A DNA stretch of 48,302 nt, taken from the IMG/VR virus record IMGVR_UViG_3300045988_153358; one strand, given 5' to 3'. Below are positions 2,853 through 42,404 of the stretch, in pieces. The notes beneath the pieces were generated by a model. That model ran no database searches and was not told the DNA's origin. It saw only the letters and a program-made list of their open reading frames with translations. Numbering within the stretch: position 1 is the first letter of the stretch; each line of letters opens with the position of its first letter. The DNA comes from a virus. Taxonomy: Duplodnaviria > Heunggongvirae > Uroviricota > Caudoviricetes. The position numbers were made by a program, and so were the translations under genes.

Positions 2853-2928
2853 GGCCCCTTAGCTCAGTGGTTAGAGCAGGCGACTCATAATCGCACGGTC
2901 ATCGGTTCAAATCCGGTAGGGGCCACCA
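2853..2928 (+). tRNA. tRNA with anticodon CAT (Met elongator type, or Ile if lysidine-modified), includes 3-prime CCA
   Basis: cloverleaf folded by hand: 7-bp acceptor stem GGCCCCT/AGGGGCC, D-arm GCTC/GAGC, anticodon loop CTCATAA, T-arm ATCGG/CCGGT with TTCAAAT loop. Confidence 0.85.
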
Positions 2929-3236
2929 ATTCACTCTCACACATAAAGATAAGCGCGGTGGAGTTACTTCCTTCGTGCTCATCTTTATGCGTGCCTGGTG
3001 CGCATTTCGGGCGAACGTGGGGCTAAGTTACAGGCAGGGCCTGTTATCCGCAAAGGGGTAAAAGCTGGAGCGGCACGGAACTGTAGCCGTGTTACCAAAA
3101 CAGCGTTGTCGGGCGATATCCGGCACACAACAGGCAAGGGCATTAATCAGTCTGGTTAGTGCCCTTTTCGTTGCGTCTGCTGTAGAGCTGGCCAGCGTTA
3201 TGACTGCCGGAGATAAGCGCCGGAGGCACAACTAAC

Positions 3237-3824
3237 ATGGAGGCAATTGCATTGTTTAATCTGATTTATGCAGATCCCCCCTGGGAATACAAAGATAAGT
3301 GTAAGGATGGGAATCGTGGAGCTGGTTTTAAGTATCCAACGATGAAAGCTGAGGATATTGCTCGTATTCCTGTCTGGCAGCTTGCTAATCCTGAATCGTG
3401 TTTGTTGGCCATGTGGTGGGTTCCGACTCAGCCAGAAGAAGCGTTGCTGGTGGTGAAAGCATGGGGATTCAGGCTTATGACCATGAAGGGCTTCACATGG
3501 AACAAATGTGGTAGCCGACAACCAGATAAGCTGGTGATGGGGATGGGGCATATGACTCGTGCAAACAGTGAAGATTGCTTGTTTGCGGTAAAAGGCAAAT
3601 TGCCGACCCGCCTTGATGCGGGGATCATTCAGTCGTTTACATCGCCTCGTCTGGAGCATTCTCGGAAGCCTGATGTGGTTCGTGACAAGCTGGTAAGGCT
3701 GTTAGGTGATGTTCCTCGTATTGAGCTGTTTGCTCGCGGTGATTTACCTGATGGTTGGCATGGCTGGGGCAACCAGTGCAATGGAGGTATCCAGTTGCAT
3801 GATGCTCTCTGGCAAGTGGCATAG
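3237..3824 (+). CDS. MT-A70 family N6-adenine DNA methyltransferase
   Basis: DPPW catalytic motif (IYADPPWEY). Confidence 0.8.
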   Translation: MEAIALFNLIYADPPWEYKDKCKDGNRGAGFKYPTMKAEDIARIPVWQLANPESCLLAMWWVPTQPEEALLVVKAWGFRLMTMKGFTWNKCGSRQPDKLVMGMGHMTRANSEDCLFAVKGKLPTRLDAGIIQSFTSPRLEHSRKPDVVRDKLVRLLGDVPRIELFARGDLPDGWHGWGNQCNGGIQLHDALWQVA

Positions 3825-3936
3825 AATTATATAATTATAGATTTATATAAAAAGTGCTTTACAGGTGGGAAAAAATTTCCTATGGTTATACCCGAAACCG
3901 AGCGATACCCGCCCTGGTTAAACCGGAGATAACCCG
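3821..3936 (+). promoter_or_regulatory. promoter-leader cassette copy 1: AT-rich upstream element, TTTACA, 17-nt spacer, TATGGT, conserved leader with GGAG ribosome-binding site
   Basis: 118/119 identical to 35286-35404 and about 100 nt identical to 44816-44918. Confidence 0.7.
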
Positions 3937-31685: not shown

Positions 31686-32155
31686 AAGATAATCATGTGA
31701 CCAATTATTGTAATAATTTTAATGGTATGTTTCTACTGGCTATCCAGCGTGTCTGATATCCAGTAACAAATCGTCAACACGGGTGCAATCAAATGGTGAG
31801 TGTTAAGACTGACCACTTATTACCAGGTATGAGTGGCCAGCATTAAATCAGAACAGCCCTTTAACTGAACTGGCCGCGCTGTTAAGGGATGATGTCACCT
31901 TATCTTTGAAGCCGGACAGCATATTGCTGAACGATGAGTTTACCGCAGGTTTCTGGCTGGGAATCATTGACTGGAGTTAGGCCAGTAGTATGATGCTCGC
32001 AAAACGAGATCCAATTTAGATCCTTTTACTGGTGGATTATCGTTCGATCAGTGAGAGACTTCGTGCATGACCGAAAGTGTTGTGGTAGAGTTCTCTTAAA
32101 ACCACGTAACGTGGTTATGATTGTGGGTGTCTGGTTGGAAAGTGACCAGATATGG

Positions 32156-34591: not shown

Positions 34592-34939
34592 ATGTGGACG
34601 GTACTTTTTAGCCAGCGATTTGACGACTGGCTAAATGAGCAAGAAGACGCTCTTCAGGAAAAGGTTTTGGCTGATTTGAAAAAGCTACAGGTTTACGGAC
34701 CTGAGTTACCCAGGCCATATGCCGATACCGTAAAAGGTTCTCGGTACAAAAATATGAAAGAGCTTCGCGTTCAGTTTTCTGGCCGTCCGATAAGAGCCTT
34801 TTATGCGTTCGATCCGATTCGCCGGGCCATCGTTCTTTGTGCAGGAGACAAAAGTAACGATAAGCGGTTTTATGAAAAACTGGTGCGTATAGCTGAGGAT
34901 GAGTTTGCAGCACATCTGAACACACTGGAGAGCAAGTAA
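34592..34939 (+). CDS. type II toxin, RelE/ParE superfamily (gp49/HigB-like)
   Basis: 115 aa; MWTVLF start, ELPRPYADTVKGSRYKNMKELR and VLCAGDKSNDKRFYE patterns; upstream of HTH partner. Confidence 0.75.
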   Translation: MWTVLFSQRFDDWLNEQEDALQEKVLADLKKLQVYGPELPRPYADTVKGSRYKNMKELRVQFSGRPIRAFYAFDPIRRAIVLCAGDKSNDKRFYEKLVRIAEDEFAAHLNTLESK

Positions 34940-35238
34940 TGAGAACATTAGATGAGGCGATTGCCAGCCGTTCACCTGAAAGCCAGGCGCGAATTAAAGA
35001 AATGGCAGATGAGATGATTCTTGAGGTCGGCTTGCAGATGATGCGTGAAGAACTCCAGTTATCACAAAAACAGGTTGCTGAGGCGATGGGTATAAGCCAG
35101 CCAGCAGTAACAAAGCTGGAGCAGCGCGGAAATGATTTAAAGCTGGCGACATTAAAGCGTTACGTTGAAGCTATGGGAGGCAAATTAAGCCTGGATGTTG
35201 AGCTTCCCACAGGAAAACGAATAGCGTTTAACATCTGA
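34939..35238 (+). CDS. HTH (XRE-type) antitoxin
   Basis: 99 aa; HTH LSQKQVAEAMGISQPAVTKLE; ATG overlaps toxin stop. Confidence 0.75.
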   Translation: MRTLDEAIASRSPESQARIKEMADEMILEVGLQMMREELQLSQKQVAEAMGISQPAVTKLEQRGNDLKLATLKRYVEAMGGKLSLDVELPTGKRIAFNI

Positions 35239-35252
35239 TCAGAACGAATGAT

Positions 35253-37295: not shown

Positions 37296-37484
37296 ATGAT
37301 GCGTAGAAAAGCGAGTTTGCTGCAAGCTGTTGGGTCCATTATTTCTTTGTTTCCGGCAGTTGATCATTTTCGTCATATGGCGACACGTTCCAGTATGGGC
37401 TTAGCGCGTGATGCTGACGCTATTCGAAAGGATTTTCAGAAAGTCTCTGGCGTTGATAAGAGAGAAAAGAGTAAGGGGCCGTAG
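37296..37484 (+). CDS. possible small protein (62 aa)
   Basis: ATG with GGTGGA upstream; stop lies in the hairpin 37473-37490. Confidence 0.3.
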   Translation: MMRRKASLLQAVGSIISLFPAVDHFRHMATRSSMGLARDADAIRKDFQKVSGVDKREKSKGP

Positions 37485-37494
37485 CCCCTTGTAG

Positions 37495-38694
37495 TTATGG
37501 TCTGCTCTTCTGTGCCAGCTTATCAGCACATGTTTTTATCAGATCCTGTAGTGTCCTGGCTGGCAGGTTTGCATCCAGTACGCTGAGTATGCTGTTGTGA
37601 TCTGCTTGGTCGACTACTTTGCCTGTCGGTGGTAGTAGCTTGAGCTGAGGATTCAGGTTTTCGTCAAAGCTGATAAGTGCTCTGGCGTTTCTGAGCAGAT
37701 CAAGAAGTAAGGCTGATATCACATTTTCCTGAGTCATTGCTGACAGATTTAGCGCCGCTTTGGTTTTCCCTGTTGCCTTGTCAAACTCCTTGATTAGTTC
37801 CTTCCTGTAGTTCGGTTCCGTTAATAGCCGATTATGCTCTGTTGCCGCGCGGATAATCGTTTTTTCCTGGTACAGTCGTTTAGCCAGATCACGCTCGTAC
37901 TGTGTTTTTAACACGCTGCTGATAGCGTTAAAGGCTTCAATGTAGGCCAGCTTGATATCTTTCACGCCTGGACCGTCGATACTTTCCATGAGCAAGGTAA
38001 ATCCGTCTTTTGTCATGCGATAGATTGTTATTTCGCGGTCGCTTCCTTCCAGCGGTCGTTGCTCTTTAAAGAAATGACGTGCCGCAGCTGTGCGAGGAAT
38101 GCGTAACGCATCGATGGCCATAACGATGGAATTGTTTGTGGTGCTGAATGCCTGGGCAACATCGGCTGAGGTTGTGAGTGGCTCGTTGTTGCACACCTTA
38201 ATGTAAAACATCGGTTTGGCGTTGAGCGTATCGACAACCTCACGAGCATTGTTTGGCGAGACGGTTACGGTCGCGGCCGTTTGTGTGTTCTGGCTGAAAT
38301 AGCAGTCTTCCAGCCGTTCGAACACATCCCAAGCCTGATCGGTTTCAAGCATTTTGGCGTGACGTGCAGCCCCGCGTTCTGTCCAGAGAATGAGGGAGCG
38401 GGCTTTCGGGGAAATTTGTAACCCTCTTAAAGATGGTTGCACATTTTGTGAGTTACTTAAAGTAACCCGCAAATTTTGTGAGTGACTTAAAGTCACTCGC
38501 AAAGTTTTTAACTCATCGCCAGCCACTTTGAAAAAATGCTTTCCTTCAATAAAGCGGTTTGCGTTACGTGAGTAATTTTTTTTGATGTTATCAACGTCTG
38601 TGCCGTATAGCTTTGCCAGTAGTTCAGTAGTGATAACGGGGATCTGGTTATGCAGGATAGGCTGTAGGGTGTTAACGGTCGGAAGCGTTTTCAT
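37495..38694 (-). CDS. antirepressor-like protein (ORF6N/KilA-type N-terminus, Rha-like C-terminal part)
   Basis: ITTELLAKLYGTDVDNIKKNYSRNANRF motif; downstream of a small overlapping ORF and structured RNA region. Confidence 0.65.
   Translation of the reverse strand: MKTLPTVNTLQPILHNQIPVITTELLAKLYGTDVDNIKKNYSRNANRFIEGKHFFKVAGDELKTLRVTLSHSQNLRVTLSNSQNVQPSLRGLQISPKARSLILWTERGAARHAKMLETDQAWDVFERLEDCYFSQNTQTAATVTVSPNNAREVVDTLNAKPMFYIKVCNNEPLTTSADVAQAFSTTNNSIVMAIDALRIPRTAAARHFFKEQRPLEGSDREITIYRMTKDGFTLLMESIDGPGVKDIKLAYIEAFNAISSVLKTQYERDLAKRLYQEKTIIRAATEHNRLLTEPNYRKELIKEFDKATGKTKAALNLSAMTQENVISALLLDLLRNARALISFDENLNPQLKLLPPTGKVVDQADHNSILSVLDANLPARTLQDLIKTCADKLAQKSRP
38443..38502. repeat. two tandem 30-bp dyad-symmetric repeats inside the antirepressor gene
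   Basis: ATTTTGTGAGTTACTTAAAGTAACCCGCAA then ATTTTGTGAGTGACTTAAAGTCACTCGCAA; arms GTTAC/GTAAC versus GTGAC/GTCAC. Confidence 0.8.
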
Positions 38695-38882
38695 TTTGCA
38701 CCTCCCATAACTACTTTGGTTACGAGGGAGATTTTTGCGTCAGAAACAGCGTTATCGTTGCTGGCGATGCGCATAGCTTCGCGCTCGATGATTTCAGCCA
38801 GGCGGAATTTATCGGCGTATGAGGCTTTCTTGAGAAGGATCTTTACGAGGTTGACGTAATAGTCATGGGGTAGGTTTGTCAT
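38691..38882 (-). CDS. small ORF (63 aa) overlapping the antirepressor start; icd-like position
   Basis: 4-nt overlap with downstream gene; AGGGA Shine-Dalgarno. Confidence 0.45.
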   Translation of the reverse strand: MTNLPHDYYVNLVKILLKKASYADKFRLAEIIEREAMRIASNDNAVSDAKISLVTKVVMGGAK

Positions 38883-39046
38883 TGTGATGATTCCCTTAAA
38901 GGTTAAGGATACTCACCACCGTCAGGTTCCAATCATTGGGTGGTGAGACGTGCAGGGTTGGAACTACCGGACACAATGACGAACCGGCGAGTCTTACGAC
39001 TCCCCCGCACGCCCCACCATAATTTGGGTGTAGCAGTGCTTTACGC

Positions 39047-39150
39047 ATAAAAAAACCGCTAACGCGGTATGCGCCATTGTGTCTACGGGGTTCCAATCCC
39101 GACCGTAGATTTTGCTACGGCTCGGAAAGTGTCCACCAATGGCGCATTCA
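39047..39150 (-). ncRNA. candidate c4-like antisense sRNA (5-prime end not determined)
   Basis: minus-strand hairpin ACCGC-GUUA-GCGGU plus U7 at 39049-39068; stem CCGUAG/CUACGG; GAUUGGAACC element repeated in the leader at 38925-38936 and complementary to 38954-38964. Confidence 0.35.
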
Positions 39151-39638
39151 TGTCAATACGGCGGGATTTTAACAGAGACAACCACATAGCGTGGGTTTAT
39201 TGGTAGGCAGAAACAAAAAAACCGCCCTATTGAGGACGGTTCTTTCGTGCTGATCGGATTCGCGGTCCTTTCAGCATAACGTCGTTGTATAAACAACCAC
39301 GCAAGCACAAGCAGCAAGTTAATTTTACCCAAAAGGTAATAATAGTCCACTATTATGCTTCAAAAAATTGTGGTTCTTGTTGTGCCTGCAAACTCACAGA
39401 TTGTGGGTAGGTTACTGATTTTGTGAAAATAAACGAGTTTTTTCGTTTAATTTCTTTCCTATTACTAATCTTAAAATAATCGTAAAATACCTGTGGACCT
39501 TCCCGCCGATTCGCACCCGGGCACCGACTTTAGGGGAGGATTCTCCGTTGCCGTACATGCAAGCACAAGCAGCCGTGCTTGCTCTCGCGTTGTTTTCGTC
39601 GGTGGGGATGCCGTGAAACGGCCTGTAAGGGCCATACA

Positions 39639-39761
39639 ATGAAAAAATACTGTATGTGTATTTTTATCGTTGTTACTGGGGCTTTGTTTACGCCACATGG
39701 GGAGGGTTGGAAGATTACTGATAACGCTCTGAATGTGACGATAAACATTAGCAGCAAGTAG
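39639..39761 (+). CDS. possible small hydrophobic peptide (40 aa)
   Basis: AAGGG Shine-Dalgarno 8 nt upstream; translation MKKYCMCIFIVVTGALFTPHGEGWKITDNALNVTINISSK; strong terminator follows. Confidence 0.3.
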   Translation: MKKYCMCIFIVVTGALFTPHGEGWKITDNALNVTINISSK

Positions 39762-39766
39762 CGATT

Positions 39767-39790
39767 AGGCCCCTTCGGGGGCCTTTTTTA
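39767..39790 (+). terminator. Rho-independent terminator with UUCG tetraloop
   Basis: AGGCCCC-TTCG-GGGGCCT followed by TTTTT. Confidence 0.75.
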
Positions 39791-41481: not shown

Positions 41482-41517
41482 GCGTAGCCTCTTTTATACT
41501 TTTACATGTTGTCAAAA

Positions 41518-41530
41518 CCACAAAATGTGG
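41518..41530. promoter_or_regulatory. operator-like dyad CCAC-N5-GTGG downstream of the repressor gene
   Basis: CCACAAAATGTGG, same pattern as the sites in the cI-cro intergenic region. Confidence 0.45.
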
Positions 41531-41573
41531 TTTTTTTGAGCGTAGAAATGCACGGCTTTCGCCGTGCTGTGTA

Positions 41574-42230
41574 TCATAACCAGTTGACAACACTAACTAC
41601 GCGGCCAAGAACTTTATAACGCTTAAATTCCTCGTTATTCAGATGCTTAGTGTTCATTTCAGCATCCCTTTCGGTTGACAGCATAACAGCATTGTCACCC
41701 GGTATGACTCTACAGTGCCTCAAAACAACCAGGCCATTTCTGTCTTCAAGGGCATAGATCCCCTCATGAATCTCTGTATCGTCTGTATTAATCAGGACTT
41801 GGGAGCCAGGGGATATTGTTGGTGACATTAACTCATCGTTGCTCTGGAGAACTGACAGAGACGATGGGTTGATGTTCTTGCTTCGTAGAATCTCCTGTTC
41901 TATCGCCAGCACTGGCTTTTCTCCGGCGTGCGATGCTATGTCATTTTTTATAGCTACAAGCCCAGGAATAACAGGAGCGTTAGTATTCTGGGGTGGGAAC
42001 GGGTTATCTGTTAAGCACGCGATATAAGGCGCTGATGCTTTCAGGGCGTGCGCGATTTTCTTGATGGCAGGTATAGATGGTTGTCTTAATCCGGCCTCAT
42101 AGTTCTGCAAGGTGCTTAAGCCTATTCCAGTGACTTGCTGGAGATCTCCGGCAGTCATGCCGGATTGTTTCCGTAGAGTCTGAATGCGCAGACCTATTTC
42201 TTTCTTGATGTTCTCGTCGTTGCTTTTCAT
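41574..42230 (-). CDS. CI-like repressor (N-terminal HTH, C-terminal S24/LexA-like peptidase domain)
   Basis: HTH GMTAGDLQQVTGIGLSTLQNYEAG; S24-like C-terminal region; divergent from cro-like gene. Confidence 0.8.
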   Translation of the reverse strand: MKSNDENIKKEIGLRIQTLRKQSGMTAGDLQQVTGIGLSTLQNYEAGLRQPSIPAIKKIAHALKASAPYIACLTDNPFPPQNTNAPVIPGLVAIKNDIASHAGEKPVLAIEQEILRSKNINPSSLSVLQSNDELMSPTISPGSQVLINTDDTEIHEGIYALEDRNGLVVLRHCRVIPGDNAVMLSTERDAEMNTKHLNNEEFKRYKVLGRVVSVVNWL

Positions 42231-42404
42231 GTCTCATCAATCGTGAATGGTGGGTTATTTATACATTACCACATTTAGTGGTTTTCACATGGTAAGACGA
42301 GAGGTGGACCACAAATAGAAGGTTATTTTTTGTTTCGCCCATTGAAAAACTCACGATATGTGGTTTTAATACCACATATCGTGGTTTTGACTGGAGTTCG
42401 TTAA
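42231..42404. promoter_or_regulatory. cI-cro intergenic switch with three CCAC-N5-GTGG operator-like sites
   Basis: CCACATTTAGTGG 42269-42281, TCACGATATGTGG 42351-42363, CCACATATCGTGG 42372-42384. Confidence 0.6.

Follow-up and report, generated by a model that had tools for sequence, protein, structure and literature searches.

On the minus strand of the 48,302-nucleotide stretch of DNA analyzed here (the window), which represents a 48-kb E. coli plasmid-prophage, we identified an operon that very probably runs in the order promoter, IsrK, C4, orf63 and ant (Table 1). The window carries a phage RNA switch of a known type, made up of a C4 antisense RNA and an IsrK partner; no RNA annotation for this region was present in any examined record of the plasmid-prophage family. 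An initial annotation had described the region 37495-39150 as a P1 immI-like module. All features named there were found on reading the sequence, and the unit of antisense RNA, small ORF and antirepressor stands, but the roles of the RNAs had been mis-assigned and homology to Icd and Ant1 is absent.

Table 1. Features of the IsrK-C4-orf63-ant locus and its surroundings, in window positions
Feature	Position	Strand	Basis
Terminator-like hairpin AAGGGGCTACGGCCCCTT with T-rich tail	37473..37490	-	Terminator scan
ant, antirepressor-like gene, 399 aa	37495..38694	-	Pfam, PHROG, homology
orf63, 63 aa, conserved; function unknown; occupies the place of P1 icd	38691..38882	-	PHROG 7886, dN/dS, overlap
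orf63 translation-initiation region	38878..38910	-	Sequence, complementarity, duplex energy
Alternative a2-presenting hairpin (9-bp stem)	38912..38947	-	Fold and covariation
C4 antisense RNA (Rfam RF01695)	38936..39024	-	77.8 bits (GA 45), E=1e-13
IsrK sRNA (c4-a1b1 element with own terminator)	39049..39121	-	Rfam isrK, 67.7 bits (GA 50)
Putative sigma-70 operon promoter	39128..39156	-	Sequence reading; geometry and conservation
Candidate operator ACCACATAGCGTGGG (plus-strand letters)	39181..39195	.	Pattern scan

The Rfam scan for C4 that had been proposed as a check was positive, scoring 77.8 bits where the gathering score is 45, and the 89-nt segment matched the model over its full length (positions 1-87 of 87). 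Its architecture comprises a 17-bp closing helix, hairpin 1, hairpin 2 with b' in the loop (GUCAUUGUGUC, 38980-38970), a single-stranded a' element following hairpin 2 (GUUCCAA, 38964-38958) and a CCACC tail. MFE prediction returned the same fold as the Rfam model; imposed on 22 loci, this fold was 97.8% paired, with compensatory changes at 13 of 27 pairs (0/500 shuffles; 39-49% in slid registers). The site at 38954-38964, previously interpreted as the target of a small RNA, is in reality the a' element inside C4. The literature on P1 and P7 describes C4 as an RNA of ~77 nt that RNase P cuts out of a precursor and that acts in trans to repress ant and give immunity (PMC5499578, PMC8546580); it also names C4 and CI RNAs as RNase P substrates (PMC5499578) and, for P1, reports repression of Ant synthesis by c4 (PMC8546580).

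Upstream of C4, the isrK model (Rfam RF01394) was covered in full (positions 1-77 of 77), including its 3' terminator, whereas the overlapping c4-a1b1 model stayed below its GA (38.8 bits versus 46.7). The upstream small RNA had been taken for the c4-like antisense RNA, an identification that failed, as the Rfam match there is isrK/c4-a1b1. Its a1 element (UUGGAAC, 39096-39090) sits in a hairpin loop, b1 is GACACAAUG (39083-39075), and a consensus terminator scan revealed an intrinsic terminator with a 5-bp stem and U7 (39068-39049). This is one of two terminators originally attributed to the module; the other, a hairpin with U-run at 39212-39240, exists too but lies outside. It was rejected as a module part, as it ends a TimR-like sRNA of the neighboring ryfA/timP toxin-antitoxin unit (TimR/TimP-type). 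Sub-threshold Rfam matches to RNAI and Phe_leader at 39213-39336 were taken as chance matches driven by the terminator.

The putative promoter consists of a -35 hexamer TTGACA (39156-39151), a 17-nt spacer and a weak -10 hexamer GACACT (39133-39128), and the predicted transcription start, G39121, coincides with position 1 of the isrK model. The consensus promoter scan did not call it because the -10 hexamer, which is TATATT in Gifsy-1 and the lambdoid cassettes, matches at only 3/6 positions. It was placed instead from geometry, identical to that in Gifsy-1 and the lambdoid cassettes, and from conservation (-35 TTGAC kept in 19/19 loci). Centered ~67 bp upstream of the IsrK start lies an ACCAC-N5-GTGGT palindrome with one mismatch, which stays clear of the promoter hexamers. 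Perfect copies are found on either side of the CI-like repressor/early operon region and also precede repA and orf124, and the site is kept at -74..-60 among phage-plasmid relatives, including those with different flanks. It may serve as an operator.

In the leader downstream, the 9-bp stem reported earlier is indeed perfect: CUCACCACC (38947-38939) pairs with GGUGGUGAG (38920-38912), and the loop, which carries GAUUGGAAC, displays a2 (UUGGAAC, 38932-38926). The strand that forms the 3' side of the C4 closing helix serves as the 5' arm of this hairpin; therefore, the two structures are mutually exclusive. Across 21 loci the stem is 91% paired and includes 4 compensatory pairs (0/500 shuffles; 30-63% when slid), the compensatory changes occurring in the P1/D6/SJ46 clade and Klebsiella phage 48ST307. 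The choice between C4 maturation and a2 presentation might provide the transcript with a built-in timer or insulate it against self-repression. Further on, the orf63 SD AAGGGA (38897-38892) lies within a small hairpin (CCUUAA/UUAAGG), UCAUCAC in the orf63 leader (38890-38884) is able to pair with GUGGUGA, and b2 (CACAAUGAC, 38886-38878) covers the AUG (38882-38880). The predicted fold of the read-through RNA resembles 'structure A', with the orf63 RBS closed.

From its sequence, orf63 is a real, strongly conserved protein under purifying selection (dN/dS 0.06-0.13). It belongs to PHROG 7886 (unknown function) and is predicted to form three helices (AF2 pLDDT 82); a domain search yielded no Pfam or NCBIfam match, and Foldseek gave none against PDB and BFVD. 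As the initial annotation had stated, it overlaps the start of the 399-aa ORF, the orf63 stop sharing an ATGA (38694-38691) with the ATG of the latter. The same overlap joins icd (2670-2891) and ant1 (2888-3931) in P1. Although orf63 occupies the slot of icd, equivalence by descent was refuted: BLASTP produced no alignment to Icd, the two proteins have no Pfam, NCBIfam or PHROG family in common, and Foldseek gave no match. An assignment as 'Ash family protein' (PF10554) was also discarded, the match being confined to N-terminal extensions in some relatives. These extensions are the translated 3' half of C4 plus the a2 hairpin, and the corresponding frame is closed by a stop in the window. The 'Ash family' proteins in the records are annotation artefacts, translated through the C4 gene. 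The orf63 product might act on the host as a new effector, or be an obligatory partner of Ant released along with the antirepressor.

The ant product has an N-terminal ORF6N domain, a central Rha domain and a C-terminal region (Pfam: ORF6N, 4e-20; Phage_pRha, 4e-12) and was assigned to anti-repressor families in PHROG. Its ORF6N domain is 51% identical to Gifsy-1 AnrP (E=1e-50), whose expression induces the prophage (PMC4825925), and 76% identical to CP-1639 Ant. The earlier call of an antirepressor is upheld by this homology to AnrP and lambdoid Ant, but the protein is not of the P1 Ant1 type, with a best BLASTP value against Ant1 of only E=7.7. A separate SD, GGGAGG (38706-38701), lies inside the end of orf63; given its strength, strict translational coupling of orf63 and ant is not guaranteed. 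The hairpin directly after the ant stop is probably the end of the operon.

The recurrence of a short element had been pointed out before and was borne out: UUGGAAC occurs as a1 and as a2, and each copy is an exact 7-nt complement of a' (7/7). A second complementary set, which had been missed, is formed by the b elements, with b' matching both b1 and b2 at 9/9 positions. The predicted duplex of C4 with a1b1 reaches -35.4 kcal/mol and that with b2 -18.7 kcal/mol, and for both, 0/500 shuffles were as low; the energy of a2 alone was not separable from shuffles (55/500). Composite a+b sites matching C4 occur only at these two places in the 48 kb, and no further C4 targets were found elsewhere in the window.

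These elements were compared across 21 loci from P1, D6, SJ46, lambdoid/Stx phages, P88-like phages, an N15-like Klebsiella phage and the plasmid family of the window. The set comes mostly from IMG/VR and GenBank phages because a scan of genome contigs with orf63 gave one locus only. Despite ~11 types of a', exact complements of its 7-mer were found at the same two positions in 21/21 loci. Pairing was longer in own than in foreign combinations, both for the a elements (7.0 versus 4.4-4.5 nt) and for b2 (8.3 versus 5.0 nt). Thus a'/a1/a2 and b'/b1/b2 co-vary across phage and plasmid loci, at fixed positions upstream and downstream, and the Gifsy-1 elements behave likewise. The pattern exceeds chance, as judged from the 21/21 complements of a', the stronger own pairing and the covariation of the 9-bp stem. 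Comparison of the window with its close relative L005 showed 17 substitutions in 311 nt, ~12 of which lie in b1, b' and b2 (L005-type set, CCAUGGUGA / UCACCAUG), and these changes constitute a coordinated three-site specificity switch. The analysis directly supports the RNA family membership, the folds, the complementarities with their covariation, the coding status of orf63 and the Ant-AnrP homology.

We propose, with a probability of roughly 80%, that a three-component RNA switch keeps the prophage antirepressor off. Transcription would begin at ~39121, and most transcripts would end at the weak IsrK terminator, giving a 73-nt IsrK with a1 and b1. Read-through RNA would contain C4 followed by the orf63-ant mRNA, from which C4 is presumably cut out by RNase P, as in P1/P7. 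The b' element in the hairpin-2 loop and the neighboring single-stranded a' would then base-pair with the orf63 leader at a2 and b2 and, because b2 covers the AUG, block translation of orf63. Loss of translational coupling, Rho polarity, or both would in turn keep Ant from being expressed. IsrK, whose a1 and b1 have the same sense as the mRNA leader and which could therefore only compete for C4, is likely to act as a decoy (anti-antisense), since its a1-b1 site is contiguous and stronger for the same C4 surfaces; by titrating C4 it could relieve repression, as shown for Gifsy-1 IsrK. Ant, when made, would presumably inactivate the CI-like repressor (41574-42230) and lead to phage induction, and the variable a/b sequences would set immunity specificity. 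We infer the processing, the direction of regulation, the coupling and the target of Ant; processing, trans-repression and the decoy role of IsrK are carried over from P1/P7 and Gifsy-1.

For Gifsy-1, IsrK was reported to bind Hfq and to activate downstream translation in trans, and the authors favor remodeling of a cis-inhibited mRNA by IsrK, not titration of free C4 (PMC4825925). Applied here, the C4-like segment would form an inhibitory long-range helix with the IsrK part of the same mRNA and never be a free trans repressor, while short IsrK, as the sole trans-acting RNA, would open the structure for translation. In addition to the Gifsy-1 genetics of cis-inhibition and trans-activation (PMC4825925), the MFE fold of the 262-nt read-through RNA agrees with such a cis switch: it pairs a1-b1 with b'-a', closes the orf63 RBS and exceeds the summed stability of its parts, each folded alone, by ~14 kcal/mol. 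We nevertheless consider a pure cis switch improbable. It needs neither a2 nor b2, whereas in 21/21 loci these two elements co-vary with a' and b', and b2 is invariably placed on the SD or AUG of whichever gene comes first downstream. Moreover, the closing helix and CCACC tail of C4, the shape of an RNase P substrate, are conserved with 13 compensatory pairs, and a stable processed species, STnc1160, was detected from the C4 segment of Gifsy-1 (PMC4825925). The cis switch and repression by C4 in trans are compatible with each other.

Pairing of C4 with a2/b2 (and a1/b1) might instead cause mainly premature transcription termination, as with P4 CI RNA and seqA/seqC. In P1, translational repression of icd reportedly leads to Rho-dependent termination before ant (attributed to Biere et al. 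1992). The target-RNA-target layout is also that of P4 seqA-CI-seqC; the Gifsy-1 authors drew this parallel (PMC4825925). However, the orf63 AUG itself is covered by b2, the minus strand has no predicted intrinsic terminator from C4 to the end of ant, and Rho polarity is a consequence of a translation block, not an alternative to it, which leaves this explanation very improbable. Scarcely credible is the polarity assumed at the outset, with the terminated sRNA at 39049-39121 as c4-like repressor acting on 38954-38964. The two do pair, and the sRNA has its own promoter-like region and terminator, but the C4 model matches 38936-39024, and 39049-39121 matches isrK/c4-a1b1, annotated as 'targets of C4'. 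Being same-sense with the leader, the upstream RNA cannot occlude the RBS, and the a1b1 elements of P1, D6 and SJ46 have no terminator of their own.

Icd and Ant1 are unrelated to the window proteins and Ant is homologous to AnrP; therefore, the closest characterized system is Gifsy-1 isrK-C4-anrP, here with a small upstream ORF as in P1. The Gifsy-1 locus of Salmonella, described as isrK-orf45/STnc1160-anrP (Hershko-Shalev et al. 2016, PMC4825925), shares a terminated IsrK, a C4-family RNA ~25 nt further on ('orf45/STnc1160' is C4 by Rfam), an ORF6N antirepressor, the logic of a/b complementarity and the -35/TSS geometry. In contrast to the window, where orf63 intervenes, its antirepressor begins 55 nt after C4; orf45 reads through C4 itself, whereas no ORF is open through C4 in the window; and its b2 abuts the SD instead of covering the AUG. 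The window further differs in its weak -10 and CI-operator-like palindrome upstream and in its Ant, which is twice as long, has an added Rha domain and has no antQ adjacent.

The immI locus of P1/P7 (a1b1-c4-a2b2-icd-ant1/ant2) likewise belongs to a plasmid-prophage, with the same Rfam C4 family, targets on both sides, a targeted small-ORF initiation region and a small-ORF stop overlapping the antirepressor start. In P1, however, a1b1 has no own terminator and no isrK match, and b2 overlaps the SD. The P1 operon promoter is under the primary repressor (Op51); a possible counterpart in the window is the candidate operator with its one-mismatch palindrome. The isrK-C4-ant (or derepression protein) cassettes of lambdoid/Stx, P88-type and APSE phages (PMC7313666) carry co-varying a/b elements directly upstream of Bro-N/ORF6N/antirepressor genes, but they drive the cargo gene directly, without orf63, and the SD hairpin of the window leader differs. 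P4 CI RNA is also an RNase P-processed immunity RNA between upstream and downstream complementary sites (seqA/seqC), but it belongs to a different RNA family, works through transcription termination and has replication genes instead of an antirepressor under its control.

The IsrK-C4-ant locus is hence an ordinary, previously unannotated example of a familiar system and not something new; RNA biology gains nothing fundamentally new here, the system type having been on record since 1990 (P1/P7) and 2016 (Gifsy-1). That the module is more than a copy of P1 or Gifsy-1 seems unlikely, the features that speak for it, both backed by their evolution, being the alternative a2 hairpin and the 63-aa protein in the icd slot. 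As far as could be found, the literature holds no description of the a2-hairpin fold switch or the orf63 protein, and a search on the Yersinia phage relatives or the immunity of the plasmid family returned nothing relevant. The analysis assigns a concrete lysogeny-control circuit to a plasmid-prophage family of ~48 kb that occurs in 84 of the 5,426 complete RefSeq genomes of E. coli and is represented among Salmonella, Klebsiella and Yersinia phages as well. One natural host is ECOR39, whose plasmid RCS82_pI is 99.9% identical. Near-identical plasmids differ by the coordinated three-site b changes, which predicts distinct heteroimmunity classes, and such classes would affect coexistence and superinfection among these elements.

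A scan with curated Rfam thresholds identified two full-length RNA families on the minus strand of the module, the C4 antisense RNA and isrK, both above their gathering scores. With permissive settings, c4-a1b1, a model described in Rfam as "a1, b1 targets of C4", also matched the 5' two-thirds of IsrK, at 38.8 bits and below its gathering score of 46.7. Reading of the minus strand and an ORF listing confirmed four points of the initial annotation: a small ORF of 63 amino acids (orf63), its ATGA overlap with a 399-amino-acid antirepressor-like gene (ant), a perfect 9-bp leader stem whose loop holds GAUUGGAAC, and another copy of GAUUGGAAC upstream. The heptamer GUUCCAA exactly complements both UUGGAAC copies. 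The second terminator was recovered by a consensus scan. Two roles had to be reassigned. The upstream candidate sRNA, taken there for the c4-like RNA, matches isrK and is IsrK, which bears a1 and b1 and has its own terminator; GUUCCAA, regarded as the target site, is the a' element of C4, inside the Rfam match, and a2 is displayed by the stem-loop in the leader.

Coordinates of the antirepressor module and associated features in the window
Feature	Position	Strand	Sequence or score
tRNA-Met gene	2853-2928	+	anticodon CAU
HigBA-like pair	~34593-35239	+
ant	37495-38694	-
Tandem duplication in ant	38443-38502	-	30 nt
orf63	38691-38882	-
orf63 AUG	38882-38880	-
b2	38886-38878	-	CACAAUGAC
Region matching the upstream extension of orf63 in relatives	38896-39024	-
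Leader stem arms	38947-38939, 38920-38912	-	CUCACCACC/GGUGGUGAG
C4	38936-39024	-	77.8 bits (gathering score 45)
a' core	38964-38958	-	GUUCCAA
b'	38980-38970	-	GUCAUUGUGUC
isrK	39049-39121	-	67.7 bits (gathering score 50)
IsrK terminator	39068-39049	-
b1	39083-39075	-	GACACAAUG
Upstream copy of leader-loop element	39098-39090	-	GAUUGGAAC
Inverted-repeat arms	39069-39079, 39137-39147		CAATGGCGCAT, ATGCGCCATTG
Putative IsrK -10	39133-39128	-	GACACT
Putative IsrK -35	39156-39151	-	TTGACA
Region of minus-strand sRNA	39212-39330	-
Its terminator	39240-39212	-
Its 5' end	39315-39301	-
ryfA	39493-39789	+	141.8 bits
Site in ryfA complementary to the sRNA	39559-39573
CI-like repressor gene	41574-42230
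Operator-like palindromes	32101-32115, 41517-41531, 42268-42282, 42350-42364, 42371-42385		ACCAC-N5-GTGGT

An exact-complement scan revealed a second recognition pair that had been overlooked. The b' element in the hairpin-2 loop of C4 is complementary at 9/9 positions both to b1 in IsrK and to b2, which covers the orf63 start codon. No further composite a+b sites besides those of the module were found anywhere in the 48-kb window. Predicted energies of the duplexes with C4 were -35.4 kcal/mol for the contiguous a1-b1 site, -18.7 for b2, and -13.4 for a2, suggesting that IsrK may be able to titrate C4. In the predicted minimum free energy fold of the whole read-through RNA, a1b1 pairs with b'a' in cis and the ribosome binding site is closed, resembling "structure A" of Gifsy-1.

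Loci for comparison were collected by a search with the adjacent orf63 protein, a query that does not select on the RNA, and by a DNA search at low stringency, in which 257 phage records proved to contain the cassette. In the compared phages (P1, D6, SJ46, several lambdoid/Stx phages, P88-type phages, an N15-like Klebsiella phage, cdtI, and Gifsy-1), Rfam detected C4 in every case; P1, D6, and SJ46 carry c4-a1b1 and lack an isrK match, and thus the terminator, while the remaining ones carry isrK, as in the window. The 7-nt core of a' has exact complements on both sides of C4 (72 to 85 nt before and 1 to 9 nt after it) in 21/21 loci, which comprise about 11 a' sequence types. Complements of b' average 6.8 nt (b1) and 8.3 nt (b2). 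Foreign C4/target combinations, for the a and b elements alike, average just 4.4 to 5.0 nt, and Gifsy-1 obeys the same a/b rule. The window and its close relative L005 differ by 17 substitutions over 311 nt, of which about 12 hit b1, b', or b2; the three elements were switched together. The C4 fold is 97.8% paired across 22 loci, with compensatory changes in 13 of 27 pairs, and was matched by none of 500 shuffles; slid registers were only 39 to 49% paired. The analysis thus shows to which families these RNAs belong, how they fold, and that their complementary elements co-vary.

The 9-bp leader stem uses the 3' arm of the C4 closing helix as its own 5' arm, so that this stem and the mature C4 fold are mutually exclusive. 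In almost all loci a GGUGGUGA(G) box is located ~16 nt past C4, with a2 in the loop, and pairing of this a2-hairpin stem is 91% kept, with four compensatory pairs (0/500 shuffles). Loci of the P1 clade have changed to CCUGCCACC in the 3' arm of C4, which still pairs with an unchanged 5' arm via G-U wobbles, i.e., by one-sided changes, and the downstream box now reads GGUAGCAGG. Since this box follows the 3'-arm change with Watson-Crick pairing retained, the pattern argues that the alternative hairpin itself is under selection, a real but thin signal because only two independent lineages show the changes.

The best-supported model merges findings on P1/P7 and Gifsy-1. Transcripts ending at the IsrK terminator would provide the a1b1 RNA, and read-through would yield C4 and the orf63-ant mRNA. 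C4 of P1/P7 is a hairpin-type RNase P substrate (PMC5499578), and we infer processing also for the window. C4 would pair with a2 and b2 and occlude the orf63 AUG; with orf63 untranslated, ant would probably stay silent, since the orf63 stop and the ant ATG overlap and the Shine-Dalgarno sequence (SD) of ant lies inside orf63. IsrK would present its contiguous a1-b1 site to C4. Trans-activation by IsrK was shown in Gifsy-1 (PMC4825925) and agrees with such a titration. The direction of regulation, the coupling, and an action of Ant on the CI-like repressor are likewise presumed.

This type of system is well known. The c4 RNA of P1/P7 was reported by Citron and Schuster in 1990, as related in citing papers, the c4 and c4-a1b1 motifs were already described (PMC2864571), IsrK is known from Gifsy-1 (PMC4825925), and APSE phages harbor c4 and isrK upstream of BRO/ORF6N genes (PMC7313666). 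The window is a further, previously unannotated example, in which an IsrK with its own terminator is united with a small ORF upstream of the antirepressor, as in P1. The protein encoded by this ORF is uncharacterised and unrelated to that of P1. Furthermore, b2 lies on the start codon, whereas it overlaps the SD in P1 and abuts it in Gifsy-1.

The orf63 protein is a member of PHROG 7886 ("unknown function"); it matched nothing in Pfam or NCBIfam and is not similar to P1 Icd. Its homologues (59 to 98% identity) all comprise 63 amino acids with an invariant N terminus and dN/dS is 0.06 to 0.13, indicating a genuine gene. AlphaFold predicted three helices (pLDDT 82), for which Foldseek found no fold match in PDB or BFVD. 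Ant harbors ORF6N and Rha domains, with matches to several PHROG anti-repressor families in the N-terminal part. Its ORF6N domain shares 76% of residues with the Ant protein of the lambdoid phage CP-1639 and 51% (E=1e-50) with AnrP of Gifsy-1; Ant is unrelated to P1 Ant1. The RNA cassette is thus conserved and the cargo variable. Compared to CP-1639 Ant and AnrP, a tandem duplication in ant doubles ten ORF6N residues (LRVTLSHSQN/LRVTLSNSQN).

ORF calls of 95 amino acids in relatives (P0001, P0003, and P0008) extend orf63 upstream through C4 and are labeled "ash family protein". Their PF10554 (Phage_ASH) match is confined to the extension, which is the translated C4 3' half plus a2 hairpin, so that what PF10554 models seems to be, at least in part, an RNA gene in translation. 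A stop closes this ash-type frame through C4 in the window.

Some cassettes are mosaics. Locus L009 (2130-2530) combines a lambdoid-type promoter/IsrK identical to CP-1639 with the window family's C4 and orf63, and the orf63 leader of L016 is identical to a lambdoid ant leader (VT2phi_272) through GAGGGCGTCATAATGACAA; the RNA cassette thus seems to recombine with differing cargo right at the start codon. The L020 leader belongs with these cases. In L003, L004, and L006, the orf63 coding sequence is identical to that of the window and the leaders are only 83 to 86% identical. In two IMG/VR contigs, sRNA-Xcc1 (RF02221) occupies the C4 position (L013:2379-2464, 76 bits; L014:2376-2460, 70 bits), upstream of an orf63 homologue and a Rha protein. 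The hairpin-2 loop of this sRNA and the single-stranded stretch behind it are complementary to sequences on either side, upstream in front of an IsrK-like terminator and downstream on the SD. As both recognition pairs show compensatory differences between the two contigs, sRNA-Xcc1, placed outside the C4 clan in Rfam, looks like a C4-type immunity RNA.

The putative IsrK promoter has a 17-nt spacer and a predicted start at G39121, position 1 of the isrK model. Its -35 is kept in all loci; the -10 is TATATT in lambdoid and Gifsy cassettes and the weak GACACT in the window's plasmid family. A perfect 11-nt inverted repeat, with ATGCGCCATTG in the promoter spacer and CAATGGCGCAT within IsrK directly behind b1, brackets the transcription start with arms 57 nt apart and is limited to the close subfamily.

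The CI-like repressor gene encodes an HTH and a weak S24 match. Operator-like palindromes, often followed by TTTGAC, lie in the divergent region between this gene and the early operon, and perfect copies are also found upstream of repA (37 to 51 bp) and just before the orf124/parA operon. This distribution suggests that a single repressor may govern both lytic and plasmid replication/partition genes. A one-mismatch copy at -74 to -60 relative to the IsrK start is kept in position in relatives with differing flanks and is absent from lambdoid cassettes. Together with the palindromes flanking the repressor region, it suggests, only as a lead, a repressor input at the IsrK promoter analogous to P1 Op51.

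The 2-kb region of the window is 99.9% identical to E. coli plasmid RCS82_pI of ECOR39 and matches ~60 other non-mobilizable plasmids of 47 to 50 kb (94 to 100% identity) and Yersinia phages vB_YpM_39/41/44 (~96%). The window is a plasmid-prophage, as related records have phage genes alongside repA, parA, and a gene for a CI-like repressor; it also carries a tRNA-Met gene. Of 5,426 complete RefSeq E. coli genomes, 84 contain the 291-nt leader, mostly on plasmids, and no RNA annotation of the module region was present in any related record, these genomes included.

A ryfA/timP-type type I toxin-antitoxin pair adjoins the module. The ryfA match is accompanied by a hydrophobic 39-amino-acid ORF (MKKYCMCIFIVVTGALF...). 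The hairpin with U-run initially assigned to the module as its first terminator is real but ends a separate, divergent minus-strand RNA of ~100 nt with a promoter-like TGGACT-16-TAAAAT. The 5' end of this sRNA is complementary at 15/15 positions to the ryfA/timP 5' UTR, at a site ~65 nt before the start of the toxin ORF. TimR/TimP has been described with this geometry (PMC7667032). ryfA stays beside the module in eight related loci, and the pair may serve plasmid addiction. A second addiction system would be a HigBA-like pair of a RelE/ParE-family toxin and an HTH antitoxin at a distance of a few kb, known from the annotation of the 99.9% identical plasmid; its coordinates are approximate, converted from locus L001.
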